A stretch of 64,000 bases of DNA from Vermamoeba vermiformis. Its lineage: Eukaryota. Numbering within the stretch: position 1 is the stretch's first letter; every line of letters starts with the position of its first letter. Both the position numbers and the translations under genes were made by a program. The stretch is taken from the NCBI GenBank assembly GCA_045837725.1, contig JBEWZL010000209.1:1-64000 (forward strand), written 5' to 3'. This document shows positions 1 to 22,594 of the stretch, piece after piece. Under the pieces are notes generated by a model. The model saw only the letters and a program-made list of their open reading frames with translations. It ran no database searches and was not told the origin of the DNA.

Positions 1-204
1 AACCCTAACCCTAACCCTAACCCTAACCCTAACCCTAACCCTAACCCTAACCCTAACCCTAACCCTAACCCTAACCCTAACCCTAACCCTAACCCTAACC
101 CTAACCCTAACCCTAACCCTAACCCTAACCCTAACCCTAACCCTAACCCTAACCCTAACCCTAACCCTAACCCTAACCCTAACCCTAACCCTAACCCTAA
201 CCCT
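1..204. repeat. Telomeric repeat (CCCTAA)n / (TTAGGG)n, left chromosome end
   Basis: Perfect AACCCT hexamer array from base 1 to 204 with the C-rich strand on +, then an abrupt switch to unique sequence (gtcgtcaaat). Confidence 0.99.
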
Positions 205-1137
205 GTCGTCAAATTAAGTGTACGAGACTCCTCTAAAATTCACTATTAATAATGACGTAAAATTGTTATCAAACTTGCCATCAAAATTAGTAGAGAGTGG
301 CTTCCAATCAATCAAGCTCTCACGTGCGTGAACGTCGATTTTGGCCTTTTTACGAGGCCACAATTCAGAAAGCTGTGGATCACGTTTTCGCTTTTTCTCT
401 AAATAATTATAAATAATGAGAATAAGCGCTTGGAGTCTTACCTTTGCCGTGATCCACATCCTCAACAACCTCTTCAATTCGCTCTCGAACTTTACCATCC
501 GCACTGTTAATGTCCCGATCGCTATTGTTTTCTATGTTGTCACTCTCTTGATTTTCATCGCCGTTACTGCTTTCACGATCGTCATTATCATCGCTCGTGT
601 TTTTTTTGTTGTTACGGGGACCCTTTTCGTCGTCTTCGCTGCTGCTGTTCTCATTCTTATCTTCGCTTTCTTTGCTATCGCTCTCGCTATCCTTGTCACG
701 CTCGGAACTTTGATCTTTGCTTTTGTTGCTAATAGATCTCTTTGCTTTTGCACCGGAGTTGTTCGATTTGGCTTTGCTGCTCGCAGTGCTGCTTGGCTTC
801 TTTGCCGTAGACGAAGGCTTGGTTGGATTCGCTTTCTTCTTGCCGTCATTAGTAGGGACCGACTTTGCTTGTGCTCGAGTTTTCACCTTTGTGCCTTGTT
901 CTTGATTGTTGTTGTTTACGTGCGGATCTGGGGCAGTCTTATCGCGCGTGTCAGCTTCCTTTCCCTTGGTTACCCTCGTCGTAGCTTGGCGCTTAGATCC
1001 TTTGTCTTCGTTGTCCTTTGCTTTCTCCGATTTTTCGGCAGTATTCTTGTCTCGCCTATTTCTGCAATTGCATTAGCTAAAATCGCGCTGGATGTCAAAT
1101 AATTAAATTAACTGTTGCAATAAACTTACCGGGCCAT
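205..1137 (-). CDS. Orphan low-complexity K/S/D/E-rich protein (gene A), abutting or truncated by the telomere
   Basis: ATG GCC CG|GTAAGT micro-exon at 1137, acceptor TTGCAG ~1062, then an open frame through ORF 407..886. An intron G|GTAAGA...TTTAG leads to exon EKKRKRDPQLSELWPRKKAK (NLS-like). The gene either stops at 214 or splices (GCAAGT...TTTTAG) into a frame that stays open into the telomere. Confidence 0.6.
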
Positions 1138-1441
1138 AGTGACTAAATTTCTATAATTTAAATAAGTTAGTTCCATCTTTCAACAATAGTCGCGCTTCGG
1201 TTTAATTTAGATTCGGATTTGCAAAAAAGATTTAGTATTTAATTATTTCTAGTTCTTATTGCTTTTAATGAATAAATAACAGAATATTTTATGCAATATT
1301 TCTCCGGATAAACAATTAACGTGAAAAATTGGAAATTCGATCTGATCAAAACTTGGTTCCTCGCCAGAAACGAACTTACTGCAAGCTTTAGTGTTAATTG
1401 GTATTTACTGCTACTAAGTTGTGTGTTACAACGAACTACTC

Positions 1442-4400
1442 TTAATTTTCTTTGCCAAAAACGTCGCGGTATTTTTCTAACCAAACCGAATCCGCTGCGG
1501 GCAAGATCTGAGATCTTGGAGGAACCCAAGGGAATAAGCCTGTAGCAAATACGTATTCTCTGACAGTGTTGTGGTACTCCGGCTTTTTGACCTTGAAATC
1601 GGTCTTTTTGAACGCGTGGTACGTGCAGTGCGCGAGCAGCTCAGTGCGACTTTTTACGCCGTCAACGAGCTTTGAATTCAAGCATATGTGCCTAAGGAGC
1701 TACAACAGCTTAGTACTAATAGAGGTAATTGATGGGCTACTTACGCGAAGCTTGGCTTCGTTGTCTATAATCTCTTTCGAATCCGTAACCACCGGTTTGC
1801 CATTAACAATTTGCAGAACACGAATGCGGGAGCTTGGCAATACCTGAGCAAGCTTGAATTTGCCTTCGTAGCCCCAGAAAGTACTCCAAGAGAAAACGGG
1901 AAAGAATCGCAGCTCCAAGTCCGCAAGTAAGCGGCGCATTTTCGAAATAATAGAATCCACGGTTAATATATCGTGGGTATAGTTTCGAATATGCTGCAGA
2001 ATGCGAGTTGCTTTCAAAGATCCGATTTTCAAGCGATCATTAAGATGCTCAATTACGGTCTTTGTCGCGAGAGCCCAATGTTTGGCAAAGTTGACTCTCA
2101 CGGGTGTGCACCCAAAGAGTTGCTCTGTTTGCCCTTGTGGAAATGCCATGTCGATAATGTCGGACGCACTCAACAACCGCTCTTTGAAATACACCTAAAA
2201 CTGGTTTAGTAAATAGTAAACGTGGTTAACATCCGCGTACCTTGATTGGGGTTGCAAAGTTATCCTGCTGCAAATAAGCGCGTTCGAGAAACGACTGAAT
2301 CTTCGCTTGATCCGTTCCTCGTAATAACTTGATGAACTGCGCCTGTTTCGCCGAAGTAACAATGTTTGCTGCACTAAACAACGCGGCAAATAGAGAATTA
2401 ATCAGGTTCGCAGCCAAAATTGAACTGATCGACTTGTCCCTCGGAGAAACAACACCATCTGATGAACACAGGCACAAGCACACGTTCGTTAAGATTTCGT
2501 TGAGGACCGATTGATCGTTTGAATCCGGAAATATCTTGTAGATGAATTGACGCGGCAATCCAACGTCAAGCAGGTCCACTTCTTCGTCATCGTAGTCATT
2601 GGTACGAGATATCGAATACAACCTCGCCTTGGCAAAGTTCAGACTTGGCACAAGCAAGTCATTGCCCACATAAAAATGTCCATATTCGAGCACTGCCTCA
2701 AGTTGCTTGTACCGTGTGAACAAAGTCGGATGAAGTAGCGATTGAACGGATCCGGACCAAATGAAGGTTAGCTGGTCCTGCAATAAAAATGCAAGCCGAA
2801 CGAAGTGATCGTTGTAAGCGAACGCCTGCAAATGCTTAGCTACGATTTTGAATTAGTAAATGAAAGCTCGGCAATTAGAATTAGTACTTACCAGAGACTA
2901 TATGCTCCAGCAGGGAGTAAAAATAATTAGCAATGCTTCGCGTGAACATGCGAGGGATGGAGCACAAAGTTTCTGTCTGAACTGCTTGAAGCGGACAGCA
3001 TCTCAGTATCTCTTTCGGAGCCACGTTGCATTGATACATTGCCTTTGTTACGTTAAAAAGGCAAATAATTGCCTCCGCAAACTCTACCAGCGTATCGTAC
3101 GCTGTTTCGAGCTCATCTAGCGTTGGATTTTGCAGTGTGAGCTCCACTCGCGGTCCATATGCCTTGTCTGGGAGGACTGTAGAATAGAGGGCCTCCGCGC
3201 GCTTGAAATGAACGCGAGCATGAACTTGCTCAGCCTCGCTTTGCAACCGGTTTTCAAGCTTCTTTGAAAGCGCTGGTGCGTGCGAGAACAAGGTTTTAAC
3301 GCTTTCGAACGGAAACGAAAGTGCTGCGTGCCAGATGTCAAGAAAAGGGGAGTTGTGACGAAAGACCTCGCTCGACTTGTCGTAAACCTTGATTTTGTGT
3401 AAAAGCGAGTACTGATTTTTCCAATGGAGCGTCATACTTGCAAACGAACCAATACCGTAGTTTGGAAATTCCGTGCAGCTTAAAGGAAATGGTCAGCATT
3501 TTTGTTATTATTTATCGTTACCTACGTATAACTCTTATAATCCTTGGACTGATCCTCAGAGCGTTTCCGGACAGTTCTCGTCGAATTTCGCACCATTAAT
3601 CTGGCGAATGGAGATCGTTGACGGTCTTTCAGAAGATGCGTAACATCACGGGTGAAGAATAATGTAATATCGTCTGGGTCATCACATCTGCATTTCGTTA
3701 ATAACAATGAATGCTGTATCAATATAACTTACGCAAAATCCTCAGCAATGTCGAAGAAAAACCAAGCTTTCGATCCGTGGCGATGGTTATACACCCTGTC
3801 CATATCAAACGATTCGCAGAGCTCTTCGTAGATTTGCCTGACACGAGCCCGATCAATAGGTTCCTTTTGCCCAAAGTACTGAACGACAAATACTGGTCGC
3901 ATTCTATAATTATGATTAGTTACTTCTGATAATCTCCAATGTCATAAATCTTACGTCGCGTCTTCTCTCACGAGATCGTCGATGGCACGGCCAATGCTTT
4001 TCAACGTGTCGGGCTTTACAGGAAAAGTCGAGCCAGGTGTTGCAACTGTGCGACCGACCTCGTACGACGATGCTAATGGCGATACTCGCCGTTGTTTAGA
4101 GTTGTATACACCTACAAGAATAATTAGATTTGTTTACTTATGCGGAGACATAGGTACCTTCATATATACAACTCTTAAAAAATCTGTTTACTGCAGCCGT
4201 ACGGTCCTCTTTACAAAAAGGAAAGGCTGCGTATAACAAAAGTGTGTTGTTGATAAGCCTACCAAGCGAATATATGAGTACGTGGAAAGAGATAAATAAA
4301 CAAACTTACCCAAGAGAGATGTTAGGGACTGTATGCAACGACTTGCCTGCGTAAGTCATCTTGCAATCTGATAACCTTGCAGCTGGACTAAAATCAGGGC

Positions 4401-5654
4401 AATAAACAAGATCAAATAAGACCTTGATGAAGGTTAAGTCTTCAAACAAGAAGCCGATGAAGTCGTTATCGATGCTGGTTGTTATTTGCATGTCGCTCTC
4501 AGATTTGAGAGAATAGCGCGGACCAAAATAGTCTCGAGAAGTCATCCAAGCGATATCCTTGTCAAATCTAGCTCCGAAGTCGGCGTCACTTCCAATTATC
4601 CTTGCGTTCTTAAGTAAATGTTGAGTGTACACACTCACTTTTGCGCGACCAGTCTCGAGCGCAGCACGCATTCGATCCAAGTACTCGTCCTTGTACTTCT
4701 TACGTGCGCCGCTGTGGTCAATGAAATCACTGGTGTAAGTTATTAGTAACTTCATCAATATTTAAAGCTATCGTATTCTTACCGCTCCGCGTACGTGTAA
4801 AACGCAGACTTTTCGGCATCGGTTAGCTTGTTGAAGCGCAGTAAGTCGGGTAAGCTTGCCTCTGGTCCAGCCCCAAGCCAGTCTGTGACCAATGAATAGA
4901 ACTCTTCAGAGAATTGTTCGGCGGCTTCATCACCAAAATGATGCGAAGCTCTGGGAGATCCGACGGGAGATCCGACGGGACTTCCATCAGAACACGGGGA
5001 CAGGTAAGGCGAATCTACGGGGCTAGGTGTTCTGACGGGAGTACGTTTCGAAATTGAGAGTGCTGGCGAACGCCGCTTGGATGCAGCTCCACTCACTGGT
5101 GAGGGAGTTGAAACTCGCGATAATGCCAATTTTGGTGAAGAAGTCGGTGTCTTTTTGGTTGCAACTCGCGGACTAGATAATGCCACTCTTGGTGAAGAAG
5201 TTGGCGTCTTTTTGGTTGCAACCCGTGGACTGGGTGAATTGCGAAGCCACTTCGAGGGTGACTCCGCGACTGGTGATTGACGAGCCGACGTGCGTCTCGA
5301 GTTCGGTCGCTTTGACCCTGGAGCTGTTGAAATATTATTATTATAAGCATTTTGTTATGAGTAAGTGGATTTGTAACTTACTGCCAAGAGTCGTCTCTAG
5401 TGCTGCCGTGAGCTCCGCTAACGAGCAAAGACCAGTTGATTTCGTAGAAGAGCCCAACCAGTTTTCTGAATCGATATTATTTATATTGAACTCAATCATT
5501 GAAACATACCCGTAAGCATAGCAACGTCCTCTTCTTCAAGGCGCCCCAATTCTGGATCATCAACAAGATCCGTTCCGCAAAATTCTAAACAACGTTAAAA
5601 CACTCAATAGTCAACTTAAACTAACTTACCAGTAGGATACAAGTCTAGTTCCAT
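1442..5654 (-). CDS. Large multi-exon orphan protein (gene B) with candidate Rep_trans/CRI-like rolling-circle nickase motifs; may be fused with gene C
   Basis: ORFs 4779..5186, 4306..4758, 3522..3722, 2881..3435, 2226..2831, 1700..2194 and 1442..1681, plus small exons, join in frame through canonical GT..AG introns. Motifs are FFFDIAEDF (DIAED 3738-3752), KIKVYDKSSE (YDKSSE 3367-3384) and GPRVELTL (RVELTL 3133-3150). The N-terminus is S/P-rich. The start is uncertain: ATG at 5654, or continuation from gene C via a weak intron at 5851-5949. Confidence 0.65.
5132..5232 (-). repeat. 57-bp intragenic tandem duplication (19-aa SPRVATKKTPTSSP unit)
   Basis: ttggtgaagaagtYggYgtctttttggttgcaac occurs at ~5132 and ~5189. 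Confidence 0.85.
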
Positions 5655-5856
5655 TTGATTCTCTTTTTCCGAGTCACTGTCATGGCCACCGACGAACGAA
5701 CCAAATTCTCGAAGATCGAAATTGAGCTTGAAAGGCGAAAAAGAGTTGCCTAAATAAAATAATGATTAGTCACACTTGTTTTTTAAATAATATTCGAATA
5801 TTACCTTGATTGTTGGTGGTTTGTTGGTACAAGTTAGTGATGTCGCGGAACTACGA

Positions 5857-8286
5857 TTAACTTGTTAGCCAGTCAGGGTATTCGTCGGAATGCGCGCGAA
5901 TGTAATCAAATAAAATCATTGTTGAATTTGGGTCTGGAAATGTCCGCACAATTTGCGTGAGTGACAGATCCGTAAAGAGCAATTTTCGCTCAATGGAGCA
6001 GATGTTAAAAAATCGGCTTATCCGAAATTTCCATTGGCGGAAAAACTCGCGTTGAAGGTTGGGCTTGGATGCGCTGCTAGCCAACTTCTTAATGTTCGGA
6101 TCATCCGGCATCGCTGCAACCAAATTGCTCGGCGTGCAGTGTTGCAACACTTTGAAGATGTTATCGTTCACCTCCACTTGCATCGCTTGGGTGTTTTCGG
6201 CGCGTGATCTATCACGAAAGAAGTCTGACAACTTCTCTATAAGTGCACCAATGTAGAATGTCTTCAACTTGATGAGGACAGTGAGCTCGATAACACGGAA
6301 CTCGAGCTTGGAAACCAGTTGCAGCTGTGAATTGATGGAGCCTGACACGGTATCCAAGTTGTCGTTAAGCTCTAGATCCAATGAACCAGACACGAAGTAA
6401 CTGAGTACTTCATGTCCTGGCGTCGTTGCAATCGCAGGCAATCCTGTGTTGTTGAGACTCATGCACTTGTCGTACGCCTCCTGAAGAAAGCGGCATTCGT
6501 TGAGGAGATTTCGAACCCGAGTAGATGGCTCTGGTACGTCGTTAGCAATTATAATTTTGCTTTGATATCAAAATCTATTTACCTTTTTCACTTGCCGTAC
6601 TTCTGATAGATGTTGTGGCCCGACTGCCCTCCCGAGCATCTTTAAGACGCTCGGAAGCCGCCTTCGCCGAGCCACGTGCGAATTTGAGCTTGTACTTCTT
6701 TTTTTGATATCCAAACCCAATAAATTTCCCTTCACCCTTGATTAAAAAGTTAAGACCAAGCCCACTTAATACATCCAAGTTCTGACAAAGACCCCGAATG
6801 TATTTGTGAATGAGCTTGTCTTTGGCCTGTTGTGAACTCTGAGCCTGCAGCAATTTCTTGAGGCTATTGGCTGTAAATATTAATTAGATTTAGAATGACA
6901 ACGAGCCACGAGTTAGCACTTACCTGCGCAGTTATTTGATGTACTCGTTGTCTTCAAATCAGAGCGCGCACGCTTTAACCGGAGGGATTCACCTGCATAA
7001 CAAGTTAGCATGCGTTAATATCACTTGTAAGTAACTCACTGTTTTTGAGCAACTTCGACGAGCGTTTGTGGTCACGAGCCTTTGCGTGCCTTACTGTTTT
7101 CAAATTAAATTGCACCCTTCTGTCTTTTTTGCCACGAGAAAGAGGCACCATTGCACCTCTATTTGAACGAGACTCGCCAGTTGGCAAGGCTAAAGCTGGA
7201 TCAGATGCGCTTTGTCTGGCTTCACTGAGGCCACTCTCTCTGTGCTGCCCGATAGTTGGCGTGTTGGTGGTTGCGTTATAGCCATCGCTGTGAGCATTGA
7301 CCATCGAGTCGTCGCCATCGGAACCAACTTTGGCCTCGGAGTCGTTGTCATCAGCTGCACTGGCTTTAGTGTCGTAGTGCTTGGAGTCAGCGTTCTCAGA
7401 GTCGTCGTCTTTGGACTCGGAGTCAGCGTTGTCGTGGGCATTGTCCTTGGAGTTGTCACCACCCTTAGAGCCAGAATCACCGTCATCGGCGTTAGAGTCA
7501 TCGTCATCGTTGGACTCGGAGTCAGCGTTGCCGTGGGCATTGTCCTTGGAGTTGTCACCACCCTTAGAACCAGAATCACCGTCATCGGCCTTAGAGTCGT
7601 CGCCGTCGTTGGACTCGGAGTTGTCCTCGCTCGATGATGGTTCATCCTCGTAAGCATCCTCTTCGTCATGTTTATCGATTTCCATGAAATCCTCGTCGTT
7701 AGGTAGGTCTTGCTCGTTGTTATCGACAAAGGCCAGATCTGACGGAGATGGGACATCCGTTTGGTGAAGATCCGCCCAATCGTGCGCTTCCATGGCAGGG
7801 TTGCTCAGCCAGTATTTGGTGTTGGCTGCTTTCTTGTCTGAAGGTTCGGCAAACCCTTCAAGGGCCGAGATGTTGCTCGACGCTTCTTCATCGGATTCTA
7901 AAACCAGATGTTAAATCCACATCCAAAAATTAAATCAAAATTAACATCCTAACGTACCATAATAACTCCACGCGTTAAATTCGTCTTTTGCCTTGCGCGA
8001 TGGATTCGCACGCACAGAAGCACTGGTCTGAAAAATAGCAGGTTAAATTGGATGTAAACTTTGGATGACAAATTTTGTTTTGCTAACATTTACCTCGCCG
8101 TACTGTTCATTTCTTGCTTCAGAAGCAATCTGGTTGCTGAGGGACTCTCCGGAACGTTGAGTATGGTAACTTCGCACCAAGCCCATATAGTCTTTTCGCG
8201 ACTGAAACACACGAAATTATTATGAAGTATTACGAAGCAAAAGACAGGTAAAACTAACTGCACCGAGTGACTACGTAACTTACCAT
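5857..8286 (-). CDS. Orphan multi-exon protein (gene C) with long acidic D/S/N-rich region and helical C-terminal domain
   Basis: ATG|GTAAGT at 8286. Exons MSRKDYMGLVRS..., TSASVRANP..., ORF 7005..7793, ORF 6575..6853 and ORF 5857..6462 join in frame via GT-AG introns. Confidence 0.65.
7395..7620 (-). repeat. 96-bp intragenic tandem duplication (32-aa ESNDxDDSxADDGDSGSKGGDNSKDNAHxNAD unit)
   Basis: Two full copies and one partial copy are visible in the DNA and in ORF 7005..7793. Confidence 0.85.
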
Positions 8287-8394
8287 GAGTGAGCAGATCA
8301 GGTTGTGGTTGTGGTTGCAGTTGTGGTTGTGTTGTCAAACAATAGACGAACGGGGAAACAGCAGCGATTTGTTTTTAAGTCTGTCGTCGTGATT

Positions 8395-10940
8395 TTATTG
8401 GTCCAGCACATCACCAACCACGTGAGCTTTTGGCGGGCTGAGTGAGTGCGCCAAAAATTTGGCGGGTGTCCCATTTTCGGCGGTGGCTAACTCACGCCCT
8501 ATAAGCAAATGGGACAAATTTATGGCGTGCATTTGCCACTGTCGTCCCCAGAGGTACCGTGAAGAAGTTAGCGTTAGGCTTTGGGAGGCATTTTTTGACG
8601 ATCTCTGACTGAAGATTTTGTGGGGTGAGCACAGCCGGAAAGAAAGCTTGATACGAAGGGTCCAATTGCTGAGTAGCGATTTGTTCAATAGTGTTGTCCG
8701 TGCCGTTAGGCTTGCCGAACATGTGGAACAGATCTTTTATCCAGATCGCTTGGAAAAGTGGCAGGGGGTACAGTAAGCACGGAGCTAACGCTTGAAGGTT
8801 GTAAGCAAACCTAATTTAAAAGATTGAATCAAAAACTGCGTTACTCAACCAAGCGGTGCCACTTACGGTCGTCGATCGAGTATTTCCTCGTAAATCTTCA
8901 GCGTTGTCTCCGTATCAAATCCTCCCAAATACAAACGCGGCCCTCGTGTGACGTATGACCAATAAGATTCTTCCCCTTGTGACCATGGCGGGGTAGTGAG
9001 ATCAATGAAGACGTTGACGAGCGCCAGATGAGGAAGGTTACACATGTAGATGGAAGGTACGTTAATTGTGACGCGCTTTCCAAAGCTGTACAACCCCAAA
9101 TATTTACAATGTGTGGGTATTTCAATTTCGGACAGGTCGATCTGGAGCGATTCGGATGGAGAACAAGGCAAAGGAATCTGTAGCCCCAGGAGGTACTCCG
9201 TATGCTTGAAGAAATAGCTAATAATATTTGCCAGAGAGGGGGAAGTCCTAGTCGCCATGAAGTTGTAGAAGTTTGCCACGTAATGATCGGGGACAATCCG
9301 GATGAGCTTCAAGTGTTTGAGGTGGAACCAGTCCAACCCAAACCTGTTGGAGCTAAAATGAAATATTGAAAGAGTTTCCAATGTTTCTTTGCACTGAGGC
9401 GCAAGCGCACTAATCAAAGCCGAATCGGGATGGTGGATGGACAAGATTCGGATCCTTCGCAACCTAAACAAACCTATTAATCAACAATATCAAATGTAAT
9501 TAGTACTTACCCCTCGAGGCAGAATTTAGAAGGTACTATGCTCGCAAATTCGGAAGACAGGGACATTGAATCGAGAATGAGTGTGGTGAAAGACGGGTAA
9601 AGCCGTAACACGTCGAAGTCCTCTAGCATACACGTGAAGCCCTTACACACTAGAGCTTCGAAATCGCGACCATTCGTTGGTTCGCCAAGATCTCGAAGTT
9701 GAATGACATCTTGGATGGTGAGACGGCCTGTTCTCTGGTCGTATATAAGTAACTTATAGTATCAATTGTGTCTTACTTACTTCCTTGGCTTCTTGCGTTG
9801 CAGAGCTTGCAAGGGTGCTGGAGTTCACGGGTACGATCGAAACAAGATTTGATTCGTTGTTCTGGTTTGAACTTGGGGCGGGCTCTACTTGCGATTGCAC
9901 TTCTTCTTCACTCGAGAAATCAGGTCTTATTGCAATTGAAGGGGAGTCCTTTTGGGAAGGTTAGTAAATTGAATCTGATCCGCTATTATTTGCTTACCAC
10001 ACTCGGCGGCGTTGGGGCTCGTGGGCTTGGAATATCTTCGATTTTTTCTTCATCCTCACAGTGAATGACTTCGTTTAAATCAGCGCGTTGCTTCTTTTTT
10101 GTTGGCTCGCTTGCCGGCTCAGCCGAAGCTTTACGCTTGCGATCTCCAAAGAGAGAGCCAGAAGAAGACGTAAGGAAAGTAGCGTGGTGAAAAGCATCGT
10201 GACCAATACCAAGGCTAGAACCTTCGATGAAATCTATGAGTTCAAAACCAGACGGGACTTTTGAATCTTGGGGGGCTGATCGTGCAGTCACGGAAGCCAT
10301 TTTCCAGCCAGACACCAAAAACGAAGCAAACTTAGTGAAGAGGGGTTGCTCGTAATCACACTTCGCGTCTTTTAGCTCTACGGAGGTTAGCAGGGAGCGC
10401 AAACCCTCATCTGTCTGCCAGTACGAATAATGGTAGTGCAGAGCGCACCAAACTCGGTAATGTTCTGTGTGGACGAGTTTGTTAAGGTCTTCGTAGGGTT
10501 GCTTGATCTTCTTTTCCATAATTAATTGCTGACAAATGTCCATTGCGGCCTTGAGGCGAATAGGTAGCGTGTGGAAGAAGTTGGCGAACTGTTTCCACTC
10601 TTCCGAATCCATGTCTACGGCCAGTGTAGCAGCGACTTTGGCACGGTAATTTTTATACCATAGCGGGTAGCACTTTTCGCCGTGGGCTGGTAGCATTTGG
10701 TGATACCAGAACACGCAAAAGTAAAAGATCAAATCTTGTCTCTTTTGGAAGTATGGGGGATAGCGTCCAATATTCACGGATATCTCTCTGAGAAATCCGT
10801 CGAGGTTCGTTGTCGGAGTCCGATTTTTTGCGAAGATCAAGAAGTTGATGTACGATCGAACGGTAAAGCTTAATGGTTGGGCCTAAAGGCAATTAATTAT
10901 TACAAATAAATAATTGTTAATGTCGTATTTTACTCACCAT
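8395..10940 (-). CDS. Orphan multi-exon protein (gene D): globular N-terminal domain, NLS-like basic patches, LRR-like C-terminal half
   Basis: ATG|GTGAGT at 10940 gives MAQPLSFTVRSYINFLIFAKNR (ORF 9986..10840). Further exons join ORFs 8863..9471 (LRRIRILSI, LETLSIF, LKHLKLIRI) and 8492..8722, ending at TAA 8395. RKRK...KKKQR is NLS-like. Confidence 0.6.
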
Positions 10941-11788: not shown

Positions 11789-12067
11789 GCATGTAGTTTT
11801 GAGGACTATGCCCCCGTTCTGGCACGCAAGGGCGTAGTTTTGAGGACTACGCCCCCGTTCTGGCACGCAAGGGCGTAGTTTCGAGGACTACGCCCCCGTT
11901 CTGGCACGCAAGGGCGTAGTTTCGAGGACTACACCCCCGTTCTGGCACGCAAGGGCGTAGTTTTGAGGACTACACCCCCGTTCTGGCACGCAAGGGCGTA
12001 GTTTTGAGGACTACGCCCCCGTTCTGGCACACAAGGGCGTAGTTTTGAGGACTACGCCCCTGTTCTG
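11789..12067. repeat. Tandem array 1: 41-bp unit, ~6.8 copies, each with a 9-bp-stem hairpin
   Basis: Unit GGGCGTAGT-TTTGAGG-ACTACGCCC-CCGTTCTGGCACGCAA starts at 11789, 11830, 11871, 11912, 11953, 11994 and 12035. Confidence 0.97.
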
Positions 12068-12137: not shown

Positions 12138-12817
12138 AGGTCGCATCCTCTTGGACGACAACCTCCCTTGTCGAACGAGGTCACAACCTCCTGGACAACA
12201 TCCTCCCTTGCCGAACAAGGTCGCATCCTCTTGGACGACAACCTTCCTTGCCGAACGAGGTCGCATCCTCTTGGACAACAACCTCCCTTGTCAAATGAGG
12301 TCGCATCCTCCTGGACGACAACCTTCCTTGTCGAATGAGGTTGCATCCTCCTGGACGACAACCTTCCTTGCCAAACGAGGTCGCATCCTCTTGGACGACA
12401 ACCTCCCTTGTCGAACGAGGTCGCATCCTCCTGGACAACAACCTCCCTTGCCGAACAAGGTCGCATCCTCTTGGACAACAACCTCCCTTGTCAAATGAGG
12501 TCGCATCCTCCTGGACGACAACCTCCTTGCCGAACGAGGTCGCATCCTCTTGGACGACAACCTCCCTTGTTGAACAAGGTTGCATCCTCTTGGACAACAA
12601 CCTTCCTCGTCGAAAGAGGTTGCATCCTCTTGGACGACAACCTTCCTTGTCGAACAAGGTTGCATCCTCCTGGACAACAACCTTCCTTGCCGAACGAGGT
12701 CGCATCCTCTTGGACGACAACCTTCCTTGTCGAACGAGGTCGCATCCTCTTGGATGACAACCTCCTGTCAAAATGAGGTTGTGTCCTGTTGGACAACAAC
12801 TTGCCGTCTAAACAAGG
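12138..12817. repeat. Tandem array 2: 40-bp unit, ~17 copies, imperfect hairpin
   Basis: Unit AGGTCGCATCCTCTTGGACGACAACCTCCCTTGTCGAACG with AGGTYG...CAACCT and CATCC...GGAYG dyads. Variants are mostly CpG to TpG/CpA. Confidence 0.97.
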
Positions 12818-12921
12818 TGAAAGGAGGTCACATCCCCTCACGCGGCAAGAAAAGCCCCAGAGGGCCACTAACAACCCCATAACCCATAGGGTGGGCAACC
12901 CTAAATATATATAAAATCCCA

Positions 12922-13140
12922 AGGCCGTCAGACCGTCTGACGCCCTTTGCTGTTGCAGTGCATGACTGAGGGTGCAGGTGCAGGTGCATGTGCAATGCCT
13001 TTGCACCTGAGGCCGTCAGACCGTCTGACGCACCCCCCCTTTCCAGAGGCCGTCAGACTGTCTGACGCCCTCCCCCTGTCCCAAGGCCGTCAGACAGTCT
13101 GACGCACCTCCCATCCCTAGGCCGTCAGACCGTCTGACGC
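12922..13140. repeat. Array 3: five copies of AGGCCGTCAGAC-N-GTCTGACGC with variable C-rich spacers
   Basis: Copies at 12922, 13010, 13047, 13084 and 13119. Each has a perfect 8-bp dyad CGTCAGAC/GTCTGACG and only the central base varies (C,C,T,A,C). Confidence 0.95.
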
Positions 13141-14065
13141 CCTCCTGCTGCACCAAGCACAAGGTTACCCATGTTTGAAGTACAATTTTATTTTAAAAAC
13201 TGGCCAGCCCTGGCCCTAAACAGCCTTTAATTGCCTCTTGTGCTTGGAAAAAACCTGGCATGAACGACTAATTTAAAATTTCGGTTTGTTCATCCCAACA
13301 CGCACGAACACGAACACGAACACAAATACAGTGCTGTTGCATTATTTATTTGTCCGTACCCGTGCACGCTCATGTTGCCACCGGTCAATGGTGCTCTCTG
13401 CAATCTTAGGGTTGCAATCGTGCCTAACCCCAACGCAAGTTGATCTCGAGTGCCCTAAGCAGCGCACTGGAGGGGTGAGCTTTTCAAATAATTTATTAAT
13501 TAATTAAAAGTTTGTAATTTTATTTTTTCAGATTTGTTTGCACACTGCAGATCATCGTTGTTTGAAGGCTGGAGTTGGACTGGTGCTTCAGTAAGACATT
13601 ACAAATTATGTTCTTAACTGAAGAGTGGTCGTAGCAAGGCAAGGAGCGTTTGGTAAGTCGAATTAAATTTTAAAATAATTTTCGAGTGCGCGGCATCTGA
13701 CGCTCATTGTTCGTTCAGGGCAGCTGGCCCCCCACGAACTACATAAACATGTGCACTTGAATTTTTGTGCATTGTCACTGCTTGCGACCAAGCCTCCAGC
13801 AGCTAGGTAAGCTGGTTTGAATTCATTTTTTTCACATCGAGCTAACGAAGTCCTGCAAGATCGACCAAGACTTCTCCCAGTGTTGGCAATGAGCATTATC
13901 ACGCGTTACACATTAATTTCTGGTAAGCAAGCAATTTCTTATTAGATTTATCGCTAATATGCTCATTCAGTCGGTTTCTTTCGCTGCATCTGTCATGCCA
14001 ACTGATGGTGCATTCCCCTGCTACAACTGGTTACGACCCACTACGGCCAAGGGTAAGTTAGTTCA

Positions 14066-14330
14066 GGACTTAGTTTTTTTCAGACATCGTCTCCATGCGG
14101 AGACGACCTCCTACGACTTTGTTTTTTTTTGGTAGATCGTCTCCGCGGTGGAGACGACCTCCTGCGACTTTGTTTTTTTGGTAGATCATCTCCGTGGTGG
14201 AGACGACCTCCTGCGACTTAGTTTTTTTTAGTAGATTGTCTCTGCTGTGGAGACGACCTCCTACAACTTTGGGGGTTTTTTGGTAGATCGTCTCCATGGT
14301 GGAGACAACCCTCTATAACTTTATTTTTTA
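14066..14330. repeat. Tandem array 4: ~50-bp unit, ~5 copies, hairpin followed by T-tract
   Basis: Unit GTAGA-TCGTCTCC-GCGGT-GGAGACGA-CCTCCTGCGACTTTGTTTTTTTG. Confidence 0.93.
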
Positions 14331-14617: not shown

Positions 14618-15840
14618 GGTGGGAAAAAATAACGGTCACCCACGTGGAGTAAAAATGTTATGCAAAACTTTTGTAACTTCAAAACGAGCCTATTTTTCCG
14701 CATTTTTTGCGGCTAAAATCGACATTGCAAAACTAATGCAAAACTTTGAACACTTGAAAATTATTAAAATTATCGGGACCATTTAGCTTGCCCCCACATC
14801 GTGCCCTTTCAGATCTCAGTAATAAGGCGCGGCAGAAAAATTCTAATTCGTGAATATTAATTTGCGATATATTTCAATATATTTTTCATGCTAATAATCA
14901 ATACCACGCACTGTGTAAGCCCGTTGTAAAAATTCGGATTTGGAATCGCAGATCTTGGTCAGGACAAATGTTTTACAGATGATACTACCGCGAATAATAT
15001 TACTCACCACGTGCATATTTATAAATGGCGTTGAATTCGCCAGTGAATATCATGTCTCCGTGGATTGATGAATCCGATCACTGGAAATTCACCCCGGCGC
15101 AACAAAATTCGCTTTTTGCCGGTTCTATTGCTTGCTATAAGCCCATCTTTTTGAGGGCTGTATCTCCTTTTCTTGTATTGTATCAACACAAGAAATTGAG
15201 CAATTTGGCCTGGGTTTTTGACCGTTACACCTGCGGAATTTTCTGTCTGTAAATTTATCACACAGATGAGCAACACGATCAAAAACTTGAGGATTGCAAC
15301 AGTAATTACACCTCCAGTGCCAGTAATATACGCAGAATTTATCGCAGCACGTACCATCAGCATAATTTGAGGGCAAGAAGCGATTCTGTTGCTTCGGGAA
15401 GGCGTACCGATCGAGACAATCCACATCTCAGCACTACTACTTCAAATATTCTGAGTAGTATCATATTTGTTATTTATATATTCAAGTGCACGTAGGACGC
15501 CAATTTTCGAAGGTCTCAAGCTTCAGCTTGTCGAGATATAATTTAATTAGATTCAGATCTAAATCCGAGTTGAAACGAGGTTGAGACTGATTTCGCCTAT
15601 CATATATAAATATTCACACTCATTTAATTAATTATTAAATAAAATTACTGTAATTTGAGGCACGCAGCCCAATTTACGAATTCGCTGACATTCCGCACAA
15701 TCATTTGCAAGAGTTTTGGCAAATGTTTCGTAACATCACTTTGGGTCGTCAAAAACACGGAAAAATGTGCTCGTTTTGAAGTTACAAAAGTTTTGCATAA
15801 CATTTTTACTCCACGTGGGTGACTGTTATTTTTTCCCACC
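14618..15840. mobile_element. Non-autonomous TIR DNA transposon (~1.22 kb) with 8-bp target-site duplication
   Basis: TIRs begin GGTGGGAAAAAATAAC(G/A)GTCACCCACGTGGAG and are near-identical over ~83 bp (14618-14700 vs 15758-15840), then degenerate. The element is flanked by ACATTTTC at 14610-14617 and 15841-15848. No transposase was recognised inside. Confidence 0.92.
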
Positions 15841-16840: not shown

Positions 16841-19800
16841 TTACAAATTGTCAATCCACTTATGCACCATCAAGTAAATTTTATCCATGGAAGCAGGCTT
16901 GGTAATGTAATCATCCATTCCTGCTTGTTTGGCAGATTCAATCAATTGTTCATCTGTATGGGCACTCAAGCCAACTATTATACTAGGTATTGCCTTTGCA
17001 TCAACTTCAATCTGGCGCAGTTTCTTTGTGACTTCCACTCCATTCATAATGGGCAATGTCAAGTCCATAAATATCATTGAGAACATCTCTGGTGAGAACT
17101 TGTCAAGAACTTCTGGGCCAGTACTTGCAACAACAACTTCATGTCCTTGTTTCTTTAGAATGCTGCTCAATAGGGTTTGGTTGATTATGTTGTCCTCTAC
17201 AATCAGAACTGGCTTCTTGGGAAGATCGGAACGAGCACTGTTAATTGCGTTTTGTGTGACAACTTCCTCTTTGTTCTTTTTCTTGCTTCCATCTGCATTG
17301 ACCCATTGTGCAATGATGCTCCCAATCTTGTCAAATGTAGCAGGCTTGCTGATGAAATCATTCATTCCAGCTTCGATTGCTTCAACAATCTTTTCAGGTT
17401 GAGCGTAGGCACTTAGCCCAATGATGAATGTTGAGTTTGGTGTGCTTTGTGCTCGTTCAATTTCTCTGATTTGTCGGGTAACTTCAATTCCATTCAACTC
17501 AGGCATAGCAATGTCCATCAATATGAAGTCGAAATACTCTGGCTTGAACTTTTCCACGGCTTCCAAACCATTGGCTGCTACTTCGCAGGAGAAGCCTTGC
17601 TTCTTTAACAAGCAACGGCACAACACTTGGTTAATGTAGTTGTCTTCAGCTACTAAAACTCGTCTGGTTGGTTCGCGCAGTTTTTTTGGCAATTCGCTGA
17701 GATGCACTTCCTCTGGGGCTGAAGCACACGTAATGCTGAATGCAAAGCCGTGCTGTGAATGCTCTTCATTGTTAACTACTTGAATGGCACTGCCGCCCAT
17801 GACCTTGGCAAGAAGATTGCTGATTGCGATACTGAACCCCGTATTGCTGTAATGAGAGCCCAGACTACGATTTGCAAAGGAGTGCTGATGCAACGAGGTA
17901 AATTCATCAAATGTCTGCTGATTCATCACATAGTTATTGCACGTGATTCGGGTGATGAGTTCTGATAACTTGTTGCTGATGACTTCGGTTGACTGAGTCA
18001 ACACAATTTGACTGCCGCTTGGAACCTTGTCGACAATGTACGTAAGCAGTGAGTGGATGATGTGCGACAAGCATCGTGCGTCCAATTCAAAACGAAGTCC
18101 AAATACTACTGTTTGCAGTTCAAGTGTGATACCGCGCTGTTCGATTCGATCGGCATACAAACGAGCAATATTTGTGACTAAAACTGCTGGATTAATCGTG
18201 GTTGGTGATAATTCAAATTTGTTCGAGTAAAGCTTCGTCAATAGCACGACTTCGTCCATTACGCGTGTTTGATGAACGGTGCATTCTTCTAGATTGTTCA
18301 AATAGTCCTTCATGTCAGTCAAGTCAGTTGAAACGGTCTCGCGGAAGGTCTTGATTGGATCTTGTGTCTTTGTCGCTGCTTGCCAGGCTTTTTCTAGCGA
18401 GAACAGACGCTCAGAAAGCAACTCCCAGCTGCCAGTAATGCCATGCAACGGGTTTCTAATCTCGTGGCAAATCATGTCTATGAACTCATACAGAGCTGTG
18501 TTGAGTTGCCGCAGTTCTCTTGTCTTTTCTCTTACTTCAGACTCGAGATGCATACGCAACCGGCCAAGTTCCAAATGATTTCGCACACGGGCAATGAGCT
18601 CTTTCTCGGAGAAGGAAGTCTTGACGAGGTAGTCATCCGCCCCTGGCATAAATGTGAGCACCGACTTGTCGCAATGTATGAGACTTACCGTGGCTGAGTC
18701 CTTCAACTTTTGCTTCCTCGCCAGCACGTGCTGACAATAAAATCACGGGAATGCTCTTTGTTATTGGGTTGGAACGGATCTTGCTGATCAATCCGAAACC
18801 ATCAAGTCGAGGCATCATAACATCACTTAGTATTAAATCGGGTGGATTAGCGCATGCAATCTTGTACGCCATCTCTCCATCTGTCGCAGTATCCACGTGC
18901 CACCACTTGCTGAGAATTTGCTTGATGTAACTTCGCATGTCGGAATTGTCGTCGGCCAAAAGCACACGATACCGCTTATTAAAAGGATCGTTGGTCATTT
19001 CGAATGAATCCTCGTCTTCGCTTGAAGAACTCAAAGCACTTGTGCCAGTGACGCCTTCACCCCACTGACTTGCTTCGTCGACAATTGATCGCGTGGAAAT
19101 AGACACACTCACGTCCGTAGGTGATTCTTTGATCTTGTCTTTGGGTAAGTGCGAGCTGCCGAGCGGAATTTTGACGGTGAAAGTAGTGCCACTTCCTAGC
19201 TTGCTCGAGACAGTGATGATGCCTCCGTGTAGCTTTGTTAATTCCTGAATAAGAGCGAGACCAATACCAGAGCCTTCAAAACTTCTTCCTTGAGTGTTTT
19301 CAATTCGGTGGAACCGCCGAAACATGTTTGGTAACTCGTGATCGGGGATGCCAACACCAGTGTCGCTGACTATGAACAGCACCTGATCGTCAACCTGCTT
19401 TAACGACGCAGTTATTCGCCCCATCAGCGTAAACTTGAAAGCATTGGATATGAGATTCATAACAATCTTCTCCCACATCTCGACATCGACAAAGACAGGC
19501 TCCGACAACTGATCAAAGTCCAATACGTATTCAAGAGAGGACTGTTCCATCAAGGACGAAAAGAGTTGGCATAGCTCGCGCGTGAGTTTGACTAGATCCG
19601 TTGGCACGAATGCAACCTGGGACCTTCCTGCTTCAAGTCGTGAGAAGTCTAGAATGGTGTTGACGAGCTTCAATAGCCTGAAGGCATTGCGTTGAATCAT
19701 TATTTGTCGCTCTTTTTGTTGTTCATTAAGAGGGTTGTGTTTGTCCGCTAAGGAGTCTGCCAGTGGTCCAAGCATCAAACTGAGCGGGGTTCGGAACTCG

Positions 19801-21714
19801 TGACTGATGTTTGTGAAAAAGATTGTCTTTGCGTGGTCAATCTTGGCCAATTCTTCCGCTCGTTTCTTCTGCTCTTCGTAAGCACGCACTGTATCCAGCG
19901 CTTTTGTGACGTGACTGACTACCATGTCAAAGAAGGCTTGATACTCAGCATCGTACAAACGGCGAGGACTAATGCCTGCAATAAAAACGCCTATTGGAGT
20001 TCGTTGAGAGTTTGATATTAGTGGCAAAACTACTGCATAGTTCGGTGACTCGGGCCAGATTCCTCCAGGTAACGGACCAAACTTCGGCACAAGTTCTGAG
20101 ACTTTGACTTGCTTCATTGACTTCACTGCTTCCGCGAAAGGCCAACCACAGCTTGTCGTATCTATATCAACCTCGAATGGACTAGCAGGAGTTCCAGGCT
20201 CTAGACCGGTCCAAGACTCTAATATAAGCTTGTTTTCACTGTTGAACAAGTAGAGCAGAGTGAAAGGCAGATCCGCTGGGCACGTGGTCAAAGACTTCGC
20301 CATGGACTTGCAAACGTCGCTCACAGTACCCGCTTTGTTTGCACTGCTTACTTCTCGTAGAAGGTTCATTCTTCGCGTGTTTAAAACCTTCTTTGTCGTT
20401 TCTAATGTCACGTCAAGTACGCCAACTACTTGCATATCTTCGTCGAAGATCGGACTTAATGAGAACGTGAAGTAGACTTCTTCTTGAAATCCATTACGCT
20501 CCATGAGCAACAGCAAGTCTTCTTGAAACTTGGACTTTTCGCCTGCCAACGCGCCTCTTAGCATGCCGATCAGATCAGTCTTGAGTTCACCCCAAATGTC
20601 GAGGCCTCTTTTGCCCATCGCAGGGTGTTTGTCTCCAAGATAAGGTCGATAGCTGTCGTTGTATAATAAGATCAGGTTTGGGCCCCACCAAATGCTCATC
20701 GGGTACTCGTTCTTCAAGCAGATGTTGACCGTGAGGATCAGACTCCGAGGCCACGAAGTTATTGGACCTAATTCGGTCTTGCTCCAATCGATATTGAGCA
20801 TATGTTTGCCCATTGCACCTATAAAAACTCGTAAATTCGATGCTGATCGGTTGCCAAATTAGGAACTATTGACACTTACCTCCGGATGCTATCATGTCCA
20901 AAAAATTCGACGGCAAATCGGGAGGTCTTGCGACGACAATGGTTGTGTCGTTATTTTGTTGGTTTTTTTCTTCTTTAGGCGGATCTCTCTTCGCTACGTG
21001 CAAGATTACGGTGAATTTACTGCCTTTGCCAAGCGAGCTCTCAACGGAGATATTGCCTCCCATGAGATCCACCAATTGTTTGCATATTGTTAAACCGAGG
21101 CCGAATCCGCCAAACCTTCCAACGATGCCGGAGTTTGCTTGAGAGAATCTTTGAAACACTCGATCTTGTTCCTCCTGGCTCATTCCAATTCCCGTGTCCG
21201 CGACGCTGAATTCTACTTCGTATTCGTTCTGGCCTTTTAATTTGTATTTCAAACCAACTGTCACGATGCCTTCAGCGGTAAATTTGAGCGCGTTGCTGAT
21301 CAGCACAATGGCGATTTGTTTGAGCTGCGTTTCATCTGACTCGAAATAAATATCTTCGCGAGGGAAATCAACTACGATGTGCTGTTTGGGAAGTAAATTG
21401 GGTTTGAAAATTTTGATGACATCGCTGACAGCTTTATGCAGAGTGACAGTTGTTAGATTCAGATCTAATTTTGAAGCGTGTAGCTTCGCTGCGGTAAGAA
21501 ATCGCCTTGTGATTGCTGTTTGATGAGTGACGCTGACATCTATGCCGTCAATAAAGCCATTTAGCTCCGAATATACCGCTGCATCCATTTTTGTTTTTGC
21601 CGACGAGAGCAATTTTTTGAGTTGCTCGAGGTTTCCTATAATCCCTTGCAAGGGACTTTGTAGCTCGTGGCATATGTTCGTTAAATAATATTGTAAATCT
21701 TCCGGCGCGTCCAT
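16841..21714 (-). CDS. Hybrid histidine kinase: HisKA-HATPase / PAS-GAF / HisKA-HATPase / REC / HisKA-degenerate HATPase / REC / REC (3 exons)
   Basis: H-boxes ICHELQSPL, ISHEFRTPL and ICHEIRNPL. N/G boxes NALKFT-DTGIG-GFGLGL and NAFKFT-DTGVG-GSGIGL. REC motifs SDVMMP, MDIAMP and MDLTLP. In-frame introns at 20819-20879 and ~18644-18688. The GGAMG..DWSKTELGP sensor start is typical of bacterial hybrid kinases. Confidence 0.9.
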
Positions 21715-22594
21715 TTGGGCTATGTAAAAAACTTTCCGTTAATAACGGGTCCTAGCCACGACGTGATGAAAAGCGTGAATGGACATTTATAATTAAATAC
21801 TAATCAATAGAAACCTTTTTTGACTATCATTACCTAATCTAAAACATTGTGCTTCTACTAATACGCTTGCAACAAATAATGAAGCGATTGCGGGGCAGTG
21901 GTTGTGTTTGGCACGCGTCGCGTAAAAAGTGCGGAAATTTCGTAGCGAACGATGTACATCACGCGGGTTCGGCCGTAGCACTAGCACTATCATCACCACA
22001 ACTCACTAGTAGATCCTCAACAGCTTTACAACGCAAGCCCTAATAGATCGTTAGTATAATAAACACAATAAACCCAGCAAGGTTTATCGGAATTCCGATA
22101 GGATTGCTGTTTCGTAAACGCACGAGCTGAAACCAAAAATTACCTTATTGAGATCTATTCTCGCGTTCTGTGTCAGAGCCAAGCCACACCGCAACTGCAT
22201 GCTACATGTTGTATTCTAATTATAAAAAGGCCGAGAGGGGTTAGATGGCAATTAAAGCAGACCAAAAACGGATTTAATTAGGTAAAATTATTAACTAAAT
22301 TAAATCAACGCGTATTGCAATGCCATAGCACATAATTATTTATTGTGCCGTAATTAATTAATTGAAAATTATTCTGACAACATTACTGACCTTTCAAAGA
22401 TTTTCTTTGCATTGCGTCAAATCTGTGTTGGAAACCTCCTCTGGAGTCATTGTTTTCTCCTCTTCGTTGACTAAATTCTTTTAGTTTCGTTTTACGACTG
22501 TCGGGTCGGTACGTTTGAGTGTTCCATGGCAAGGAAAAAGTATTAACTGATCTACCTCTTGCGCCGGCGCAGGTCGTTAAATCCCGCAAGGCAC

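Follow-up and report, generated by a model that had tools for sequence, protein, structure and literature searches.

The window that we analysed is a stretch of 64,000 nucleotides from Vermamoeba vermiformis (assembly GCA_045837725.1, contig JBEWZL010000209.1, positions 1 to 64,000 of the forward strand), which starts at a chromosome end. Next to the telomere, at a distance of 1.2 kb, lies a spliced gene on the minus strand, referred to here as gene B, whose inferred model consists of 12 exons and 11 introns of 44-58 nt, all GT..AG, and gives one open frame of 1179 codons with a single terminal stop. The start codon and the first two exons are the least certain parts of this model, as they rest on splice signals alone. 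The features discussed below are as follows:

1..204, no strand assigned: telomere repeat, (AACCCT)x34, also written (CCCTAA)34.
1442..5519, minus strand: gene B, inferred exons 5519-5510, 5465-5382, 5323-4783, 4729-4310, 4258-4158, 4111-3955, 3903-3733, 3687-3526, 3478-2892, 2839-2241, 2194-1745 and 1699-1442.
3733..3903, minus strand: exon that carries motif 1, reading MRPVFVVQYFGQKE...AWFFFDIAEDFA.
3861..3893, minus strand: the stretch VFVVQYFGQKE, within the motif-1 exon.
3735..3767, minus strand: motif 1, AWFFFDIAEDF, with D489 (codon 3752-3750), A491 and D493.
3688..3732, minus strand: intron of 45 nt, GTAAGT..GCAG.
3526..3687, minus strand: middle exon, CDDPDD...SPFARLMVRN..., part of a family-specific stretch between motif 1 and the hairpin.
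3479..3525, minus strand: intron of 47 nt, GTAGGT..TAAG.
2892..3478, minus strand: exon that carries motifs 2, 3 and 4 and the helical region after them.
3406..3432, minus strand: motif 2 candidate, TLHWKNQYS.
3367..3396, minus strand: motif 3, KIKVYDKSSE, with K579, Y581 (codon 3384-3382), K583 and E586.
3133..3156, minus strand: motif 4, GPRVELTL, with R659 (3150-3148) and E661 (3144-3142).

The observation made in the original prediction, a spliced gene that reads AWFFFDIAEDF, KIKVYDKSSE and GPRVELTL in that order, is confirmed, and the limits it gave, 3133-3904, are exact. The first Asp lies 92 residues before the Tyr and the Tyr 78 residues before the Arg, so the predicted gaps of ~87 and ~75 residues are roughly right; the corresponding spacings in pT181 RepC are 47 and 21. 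The exon junctions around the motifs find support in relatives. The 3526/3478 junction is continuous in three of them (P0014, P0007 and L001, which lack the 47-nt intron) and holds an in-frame insert in a fourth (P0013), and the junctions at 3733/3687 and 2892/2839 fall where the ORFs of relatives break. The motif-1 exon has relatives of 93% (P0015) and 84% (P0016) identity that start and end at the same points. Three RNA runs with the same species label gave 0 reads on positions 1100-7000, which does not amount to a test of expression.

Gene B belongs to a very rare family. Only 12 fragmentary relatives exist among 1.84 billion representatives, and a search with the motif-1 exon found only the two close relatives above. 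Four of the relatives, P0001, P0002, P0012 and P0013, lie on longer contigs of 12.9, 13.0, 14.6 and 7.0 kb. At the DNA level, we found one 1.6-kb metagenome contig (L001), without the motif-1 exon, and nothing in 185,579 prokaryote genomes or in viral contigs. The best named relatives of a neighbouring Hsp104 gene are Amoebozoa, and the neighbours of gene B have no Pfam family.

No curated model recognizes the protein. Pfam returned no Rep_trans (PF02486) or Phage_CRI (PF05144) hit at E<=1 for eight exon translations, nor any among the eight families listed at E<=10 when 15 family members were scanned, where the cut-offs of the two models are 29.6 and 21.7 bits. PHROGs, NCBIfam and a family profile run against PDB sequences gave nothing relevant. 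HMMs that we built from 42 members (26 Rep_trans and 16 Phage_CRI ORFs) give only -1.1 to 3.0 bits on the spliced protein; for scale, true RepC reaches only 36.5 bits on the Pfam model. A RepC search of a word-indexed sequence collection added no diversity, as all 120 hits listed were 86% identical or more.

The motifs nonetheless match, in the same order, the published active site of Rep_trans enzymes. Of the thirteen conserved residues named by Carr et al. 2016 for RepDE (R140, D142, A144, D146, T176, Y178, G180, R189, Y191, K193, E196, R212 and E214; PMC4797284), ten have a matching or conservative residue in the window protein: D489, A491, D493, T565, K579, Y581, K583, E586, R659 and E661. 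In motif 1, D489, A491 and D493 align with D142 (a metal ligand), A144 and D146, while F487 stands where R140 would be, an Arg that 36 of 41 true members in our set possess. The motif-1 block scores 4.6 bits, and D-x-A-x-D is known only from the window and the two relatives of 93% and 84% identity. In motif 3, K579, Y581, K583 and E586 align with R189, Y191, K193 and E196, and the block scores 15 bits, rank 1 of 1053 in the protein. In motif 4, R659 and E661 align with R212 and the metal ligand E214, again at rank 1 of 1053. The motif 2 candidate would be the strand before the Tyr strand and starts 12 residues before motif 3, the spacing found in true Rep_trans and CRI members, but the match is weak (about 4-6 bits), and Y178 and G180 are not matched. 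NYGIGSFAS was also considered as the Y-x-G-S motif and was dropped, as both the motif chain and hhalign prefer TLHWKNQYS. For the N-terminal strand with the third metal ligand (RepDE D46, motif h-h-D-W-L), the best upstream block matches are KPDTLKSIGR (5.7 bits) and SFDMDRVYNH (4.9 bits), both weak, not strand-like and in a part that no relatives cover.

Of the residues that match this active site, those of motifs 3 and 4 are also among those the family keeps, a point that had been set as a test beforehand. Of 191 alignment columns with six or more sequences, 14 are invariant, and these include K579 and Y581 (7 of 7 each) and R659 and E661 (10 of 10 each), while K583 is K or R and E586 is E or Q in 7 of 7. 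These counts leave out P0003 (the same as L001b), P0008 and P0009 (cluster mates of P0013 and P0014) and P0011, which does not cover the motifs. The Asp after the Tyr, which the original prediction counted as part of the motif, is not conserved in this family (D/Y/A/Q/S), nor is that position in 42 Rep_trans/CRI sequences.

To ask whether the likeness exceeds chance, we built motif-block matrices from the 26 Rep_trans and 16 Phage_CRI ORFs. In the single sequence, it does so only modestly, as 4 of 3000 residue shuffles of the protein reach its four-block chain score, which is not rare for a scan of many genes. At the family level, the answer is clearly yes: the family profile scores 28.5 bits for the collinear chain, a score that 0 of 5000 column shuffles reach (maximum 21.5), and the reversed alignment scores 2.9. 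With the window sequence and its three closest relatives left out, the three blocks each rank 1 of about 220 at the same positions, and the chain scores 23.3, again reached by 0 of 5000 shuffles (maximum 13.7). An unrelated real family (Hsp104, 881 columns) reaches 16.7 for four blocks and 11.6 for three. Column shuffles are, however, a lenient null, and the gap limits of the chain were set after seeing the data.

Profile-profile comparisons are weak but point to the matching motifs. In plain hhalign against Rep_trans, the best alignment puts RxE on RxE (P 0.023) and the second puts FDIAEDF on lDlA.D (0.18), whereas against CRI the Tyr hairpin lies on the Tyr hairpin (0.11; MTLHWKNQYSLLHKIKVYDKSSE against Tv.w-g..sr...lK.Y.K..E); four negative controls give 0.31-0.47. 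The plain hhalign probability is only 0.5-2%. When two long family-specific segments, residues 496-552 and 592-647, are modelled as insertions, it rises to 19.5% (E 1.2e-3, CRI) and 34% (E 4.2e-4, both sets), a mask chosen after seeing the data, while 45 random masks of the reversed alignment give E of 0.19 or worse. One hhalign run aligned CRI motif 1 to DRVYNH instead of FDIAED. In a protein-language-model search with the 203-aa exon, clusters named Rep_trans or II/X-family replication protein stand at ranks 4, 5 and 11, and all ten best named hits share one family or clan, but the scores are 0.88, below the 0.9 line of the method, and the hits share 117-119 features, typical of chance hits or distant relatives; the distant relative P0014 gave no usable hit. 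An AF2 model of the same exon, which lacks the rest of a domain split by two introns (one out of frame), has a pLDDT of 50.4 and puts strands on motifs 2, 3 and 4 at low confidence; Foldseek found no match for it at E<=0.001 in PDB or BFVD, with best E-values of 0.84 and 0.16 that are meaningless. In the reciprocal direction, the family HMM was run against 158 bacterial ORFs, of which 51 match Rep_trans/CRI. Although 18 of the top 30 are Rep ORFs (P 5e-4), the scores are about 0 bits, the alignments lie mostly off the matching motifs, and P is only 0.03 among ORFs of 250 aa or more, so we do not count this as support.

A comparison with known systems places these similarities in context. With RepC, RepD and RepDE of pT181-family plasmids and RepSTK1, gene B shares the order and make-up of the active-site strands, namely D-x-A-x-D, a strand-turn-strand with basic-x-Tyr-x-Lys-x-x-Glu/Gln, and Arg-x-Glu; the E/Q alternation at Y+5 is the one seen between RepDE E196 and RepSTK1 Q184. 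It differs in having no HMM-level similarity, in the Phe at Arg140, in the unmatched Tyr178 and Gly180, in the lack of an identified Asp46 equivalent and in spacings two to four times those of RepC, and it is a 1179-aa, spliced, nuclear protein encoded next to a telomere, with no origin, partner helicase or plasmid context seen. The same differences hold for the filamentous-phage gpII-type initiators (Phage_CRI), which gave the best single profile alignment of the Tyr hairpin; some members lack the Arg before the first Asp (WID, HID), as the window protein does, and some end motif 4 with ELT, as here. Rep_trans-type relaxases of Tn916/ICEBs1/ICESt3 elements (MOBT; PMC6499999) have the same catalytic motifs, and the 401-404 aa ORFs of this type in our set (L093-L095) score 236-249 bits on PF02486, but these have a bacterial conjugative context and an N-terminal HTH, and nothing comparable is seen here. 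Rep-Arvir (DUF7845, PF25227) of archaeal viruses and plasmids is a precedent for a Rep_trans relative outside bacteria that sequence searches miss and only structure shows, with a conserved Tyr and acidic residues (PMC13107129); its motif is KHYYM, not K-x-Y-x-K, and it is archaeal with a wHTH domain. HUH endonucleases use the same chemistry, a Tyr nucleophile plus a metal (PMC4797284), but their fold and metal site are unrelated, and no HUH motif family was found in any exon. Helitrons and Replitrons use HUH enzymes.

We consider it somewhat more likely than not that the central region of gene B, about residues 440-700, holds a very divergent catalytic core of the Rep_trans/Phage_CRI kind, the non-HUH, TBP-like-fold tyrosine endonucleases that start rolling-circle replication of pT181-type plasmids and filamentous phages and act as relaxases of Tn916/ICEBs1-type elements. 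By analogy with RepDE and RepSTK1, Y581, the candidate nucleophile, would attack a phosphodiester and become joined to the 5' phosphate; a divalent metal would be held by D489, E661 and a third acidic residue not yet identified; and K579 and K583 would take the roles of R189 and K193, which are critical for religation. What our analysis establishes is the gene model, the motifs, the strict conservation of the matching residues in the relatives that cover them, and profile alignments that are weak but consistently at the matching motifs, whereas the common fold, catalysis and any substrate are inferred. The interpretation offered in the original prediction, a tyrosine nickase of a eukaryotic rolling-circle or transposing element, is partly supported: the gene is eukaryotic and spliced and the triad is real, although the first of its motifs lacks the Arg, as had been noted, but there is no sign of a mobile element. 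No direct or inverted repeats flank 1.4-5.6 kb, there is no second copy in the 64-kb window, relatives are very rare, and the palindromic tandem arrays at 11.8-14.3 kb, with units of 37-50 nt, lie 6-9 kb away behind other ORFs, with nothing that links them to the gene.

The main alternative, which we regard as less likely but which survives, is that gene B encodes a lineage-specific orphan protein of another fold, whose conserved K-x-Y-x-K/R hairpin and R-x-E strand serve some other purpose and resemble Rep_trans by chance or convergence. The blank library searches, the low hhalign probability without a chosen mask, the sub-threshold language-model scores, the long spacings, the missing Arg140, the lack of an identified Asp46 equivalent, the near-zero reciprocal scores and the fact that short motifs were picked from a very large scan are all consistent with this view. 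However, chance likeness in one sequence does not predict that the matched residues are the family's invariant ones, that blocks built from bacterial proteins rank first at the same three places in relatives that played no part in the original prediction, or that the free and conservative positions (Y+1 free, Y+2 K/R, Y+5 E/Q) follow the bacterial pattern, and decoys and an unrelated real family score far lower. It is unlikely that the protein is a true descendant of a Rep_trans-like domain that no longer cuts DNA and now serves as a DNA-binding or structural module of a large host protein. Its 1179 residues with long flanking regions of no known family, its rarity, the absence of a second copy in the window or visible element ends, the loss of Arg140 and the unidentified Asp46 equivalent would fit, but the candidate nucleophile, both flanking basic residues and the R-x-E pair are invariant or conservative across relatives of 23-67% identity, the pattern expected of a working active site. 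A decaying pseudogene or false exon chain, despite the lack of RNA support and the weak first two exons, is very unlikely given 3540 nt open across 11 canonical introns and protein-level conservation, with shared intron positions, in relatives as low as 23% identity.

A bolder possibility, which we hold to be doubtful but not excluded, is that this family is a third, eukaryotic branch of the Rep_trans/Rep-Arvir tyrosine endonucleases, inherited with its introns in amoebozoan-like protists and still active. It would nick a specific DNA hairpin to start rolling-circle copying or movement of an as yet unseen nuclear replicon or element, possibly acting on subtelomeric palindromic arrays like those at 11.8-14.3 kb.

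Rep_trans enzymes are described as restricted to bacteria, and their archaeal cousins were recognized only in 2026, and only by structure (PMC13107129). Literature searches on Rep_trans in eukaryotes and on PF02486, judged by title and abstract start, showed no paper on a Rep_trans-like gene of a eukaryotic cell. A spliced nuclear member would raise the question of what DNA such an enzyme cuts in a eukaryote, and it would extend this fold of nicking enzymes to all three domains.

The sequence begins with a telomere, and gene B ends 1.2 kb from it, so the stretch starts at a chromosome end. Short GT..AG introns with TACTAAY-like branch sites, together with long intron-poor histidine-kinase-like ORFs further in, show a eukaryote, and an Hsp104/ClpB fragment at the far end has Amoebozoa as its best named relatives, at 53-55% identity (Cavenderia, Acytostelium, Physarum, Dictyostelium), although this is a rough placement from one protein. 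An aquifer metagenome run (X3) holds six short contigs identical to 1803-6795 but for one base, and the same or a near-identical organism therefore occurs in that kind of sample. The features of the gene and its motifs are as follows:

1-204: 34 perfect AACCCT repeats, the telomere.
5519-1442, minus strand: gene B, an inferred model of 12 exons (5519-5510, 5465-5382, 5323-4783, 4729-4310, 4258-4158, 4111-3955, 3903-3733, 3687-3526, 3478-2892, 2839-2241, 2194-1745, 1699-1442).
5119-5231: a 57-nt tandem duplication inside the Ser/Pro-rich N-terminal exon of gene B (SPRVATKKTPTSSP twice).
3893-3861, minus strand: VFVVQYFGQKE.
3767-3735, minus strand: AWFFFDIAEDF (motif 1).
3396-3367, minus strand: KIKVYDKSSE (motif 3).
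3156-3133, minus strand: GPRVELTL (motif 4).

The 12 exons give a 3540-nt frame of 1179 codons with one terminal stop, and all 11 introns are 44-58 nt and GT..AG. Residue numbers below follow this model. The start codon and the first two small exons rest on splice signals only, but relatives support the exons that matter: the related ORFs P0015 and P0016 begin and end with the 3903-3733 exon; the relatives P0014, P0007 and L001 (a 1.6-kb metagenome contig) run straight across the 3526/3478 junction, whereas P0013 has an in-frame insert of 22 codons there; and L001 and P0011 break where the 2892/2839 intron lies. The 47-nt intron at 3479-3525, between the middle exon and the exon carrying motifs 2, 3 and 4, is absent in three relatives, and L001 has an extra intron between motif 3 and motif 4, so intron gain or loss has occurred within the family. 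Three RNA runs with the same species label gave no read on 1100-7000, which does not amount to a test of the model. The original prediction placed the motifs within 3133-3904 and held that the first lies in a separate small exon; both points are correct, and the observation as such is confirmed.

Standard searches do not place the protein in a known family. Eight exon translations have no Pfam family of note at E<=1, and a HMMER search over 1,835,955,588 representative proteins found 12 at E<=0.001, all fragments of 332 aa or less and none informatively named. Pattern scans found one 1.6-kb metagenome contig and nothing in prokaryote genomes or viral contigs. The family is therefore rare, eukaryotic as far as seen, and unannotated. 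Scanning the 15 family members one by one brought no replication-initiator family from Pfam, PHROGs or NCBIfam, and a profile of the family against PDB sequences brought none either. By the usual definition, gene B is not a member of Rep_trans (PF02486) or Phage_CRI (PF05144).

For comparison, we read RepC from pT181 (TRLDLAFDF, RIYNKKQE, WRVEIELK) and collected 26 Rep_trans and 16 Phage_CRI ORFs from about 800 bacterial genomes, whose alignment gives five blocks:

m0: h-h-D-W-L.
m1: x-x-R-h-D-h-A-x-D.
m2: T-h-Y-h-G-x-x-x-S.
m3: x-h-basic-h-Y-x-K-x-x-E.
m4: W-x-R-x-E-h-x-h-basic.

The same residues are named in RepDE by Carr et al. 2016, with Y191 on strand 10, R189, K193, E196, T176, Y178 and G180 on strands 9-10, and R140, D142, A144, D146, R212 and E214 on strands 6 and 11; the metal is held by D46, D142 and E214, and R189 and K193 are critical for religation (PMC4797284). 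The gene B protein has D489, A491 and D493, with F487 in place of R140; T565; K579, Y581, K583 and E586; and R659 and E661, which is ten of the thirteen named residues, counting K for R. Block m3 scores 15.0 bits and m4 7.5 bits, each the best place in the 1179-aa protein, whereas m1 scores 4.6 bits (second best) and m2 5.6 bits, and no convincing m0, the block that would carry the third metal ligand, was found. The chain totals 32.6 bits, against 50-71 for six true members, which were part of the training set. Motif 2 starts 12 residues before motif 3, as in true members, while the other two gaps are long, 92 and 78 against 47 and 21 in RepC, although some proteobacterial members have 35-48 between Tyr and Arg. 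On its own, the single-sequence chain is not rare enough, as 4 of 3000 shuffles reach it.

We then asked what could not be asked of the one sequence: whether the matched residues are the ones the family conserves. In an alignment of the gene B region with 14 fragments, leaving out P0003 (same as L001b), P0008 and P0009 (cluster mates of P0013 and P0014) and P0011 (which does not cover the motifs), 191 columns have 6 or more sequences and 14 are invariant: G557, K579, Y581, S585, R589, P593, A600, F604, P605, R659, E661, N666, P711 and Q713. Four of the 14 are the four strongest Rep_trans positions. K583 is K or R and E586 is E or Q in all 7 sequences, Q being also what RepSTK1 has at that place (PMC4797284), and the residue after the Tyr is free (D, Y, A, Q, S), as in the bacterial set. 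Motif 1 is seen only in three close sequences, in which, by our count, 12 of the 13 differences fall in the first 36 of 57 residues and one in the last 21.

The family profile scores 28.5 bits on the block chain, which 0 of 5000 column shuffles reach (maximum 21.5), and the reversed alignment scores 2.9. Leaving out the gene B sequence, P0001, P0015 and P0016, the blocks m2, m3 and m4 each rank first of about 220 positions at the same three places, and the chain is 23.3, with 0 of 5000 shuffles reaching it (maximum 13.7). Column shuffles are a lenient null, so we also scored a real unrelated family, Hsp104 (45 sequences, 881 columns), which gives 16.7 for four blocks and 11.6 for three. The gap limits of the chain were chosen after seeing the data, but they were applied to all nulls alike.

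Profile-profile comparison gives weaker signals. Aligning the family against Rep_trans with hhalign gives P 0.023 with RxE on RxE, and the next alignment puts FDIAEDF on lDlA.D (0.18); against CRI it gives 0.11, with the Tyr hairpin on the Tyr hairpin. The positive control, Rep_trans against CRI, gives 95.7% and 9e-9, and four negative controls give 0.31-0.47. Our HMMs of the bacterial sets, run on the spliced protein as the single target, give E 0.04, 0.0054 and 0.0029 at the Tyr region, but only -1.1 to 3.0 bits. If residues 496-552 and 592-647 are treated as insertions, a mask that was chosen with the hypothesis in mind, hhalign rises to 19.5% (E 1.2e-3, CRI; 127 columns through all motifs) and 34% (E 4.2e-4, both sets), whereas 45 random masks of the reversed alignment stay at E 0.19 or worse. 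In the CRI alignment, motif 1 of CRI falls on DRVYNH rather than FDIAED.

A protein-language-model search with the 203-aa exon lists clusters named Rep_trans or II/X-family replication protein at ranks 4, 5 and 11 (scores 0.88, 117-119 shared features), below three unnamed top clusters from phages and bacteria. By the method's own figures this is a lead only, and what gives it weight is that it names the family proposed beforehand; a distant relative gave no usable hit. An AF2 model of the same exon, built with 15 sequences, reached pLDDT 50.4 and draws strands on SMTLH, KIKVY and EL of RVELTL and helices elsewhere, and fold searches with this model are meaningless.

The surroundings contain the following further features:

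407-1072 and 5857-10882, minus strand: five further ORFs of 205-301 aa, some acidic or Lys/Ser-rich and repetitive, with no Pfam family at E<=0.1.
11793-12067: tandem array, unit of 41 nt.
12138-12765: tandem array, unit of 40 nt, whose read-throughs are the long ORFs at 12181-13015.
13002-13157: tandem array, unit of 37/72 nt, with units that are palindromes themselves (CGTCAGAC-N-GTCTGACG).
14067-14329: tandem array, unit of 49-50 nt, with units that are palindromes themselves (GTCGTCTCC...GGAGACGAC).
14618-14743 and 15715-15840: an inverted repeat pair of 126 nt, 84% complementary, with 971 nt between the arms, which looks like a small foldback or MITE-like element.
16841-21738, minus strand: three long, nearly intron-free ORFs (633, 741 and 290 aa) that, judged by eye, read like hybrid histidine kinases with receiver domains.

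No repeat flanks gene B and no second copy lies in the window. The neighboring ORFs up to 11 kb, and the low-complexity ORF between the gene and the telomere, have no Pfam family. The first 11 kb from the telomere holds only orphan genes. Rep_trans enzymes cut in origin hairpins (PMC4797284), which makes the tandem arrays of palindromic 37-50-nt units at 11.8-14.3 kb conceivable substrates, but nothing connects them to the gene.

Taken together, the interpretation offered in the original prediction is partly supported. The reading of gene B as a Rep_trans/CRI-type tyrosine nickase is the best explanation, which we consider somewhat more likely than not, whereas the suggestion that it belongs to a rolling-circle or transposing element has no support. 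The motifs and the conservation of the matched residues among relatives come directly from the sequences, but that the protein works like these enzymes rests on a conserved active-site signature and twilight profile matches, and its fold, expression and nicking activity are inferred. If this reading is true, a family said to be confined to bacteria, with archaeal cousins (PMC13107129), would have a new, eukaryotic variant that bears introns and long insertions.
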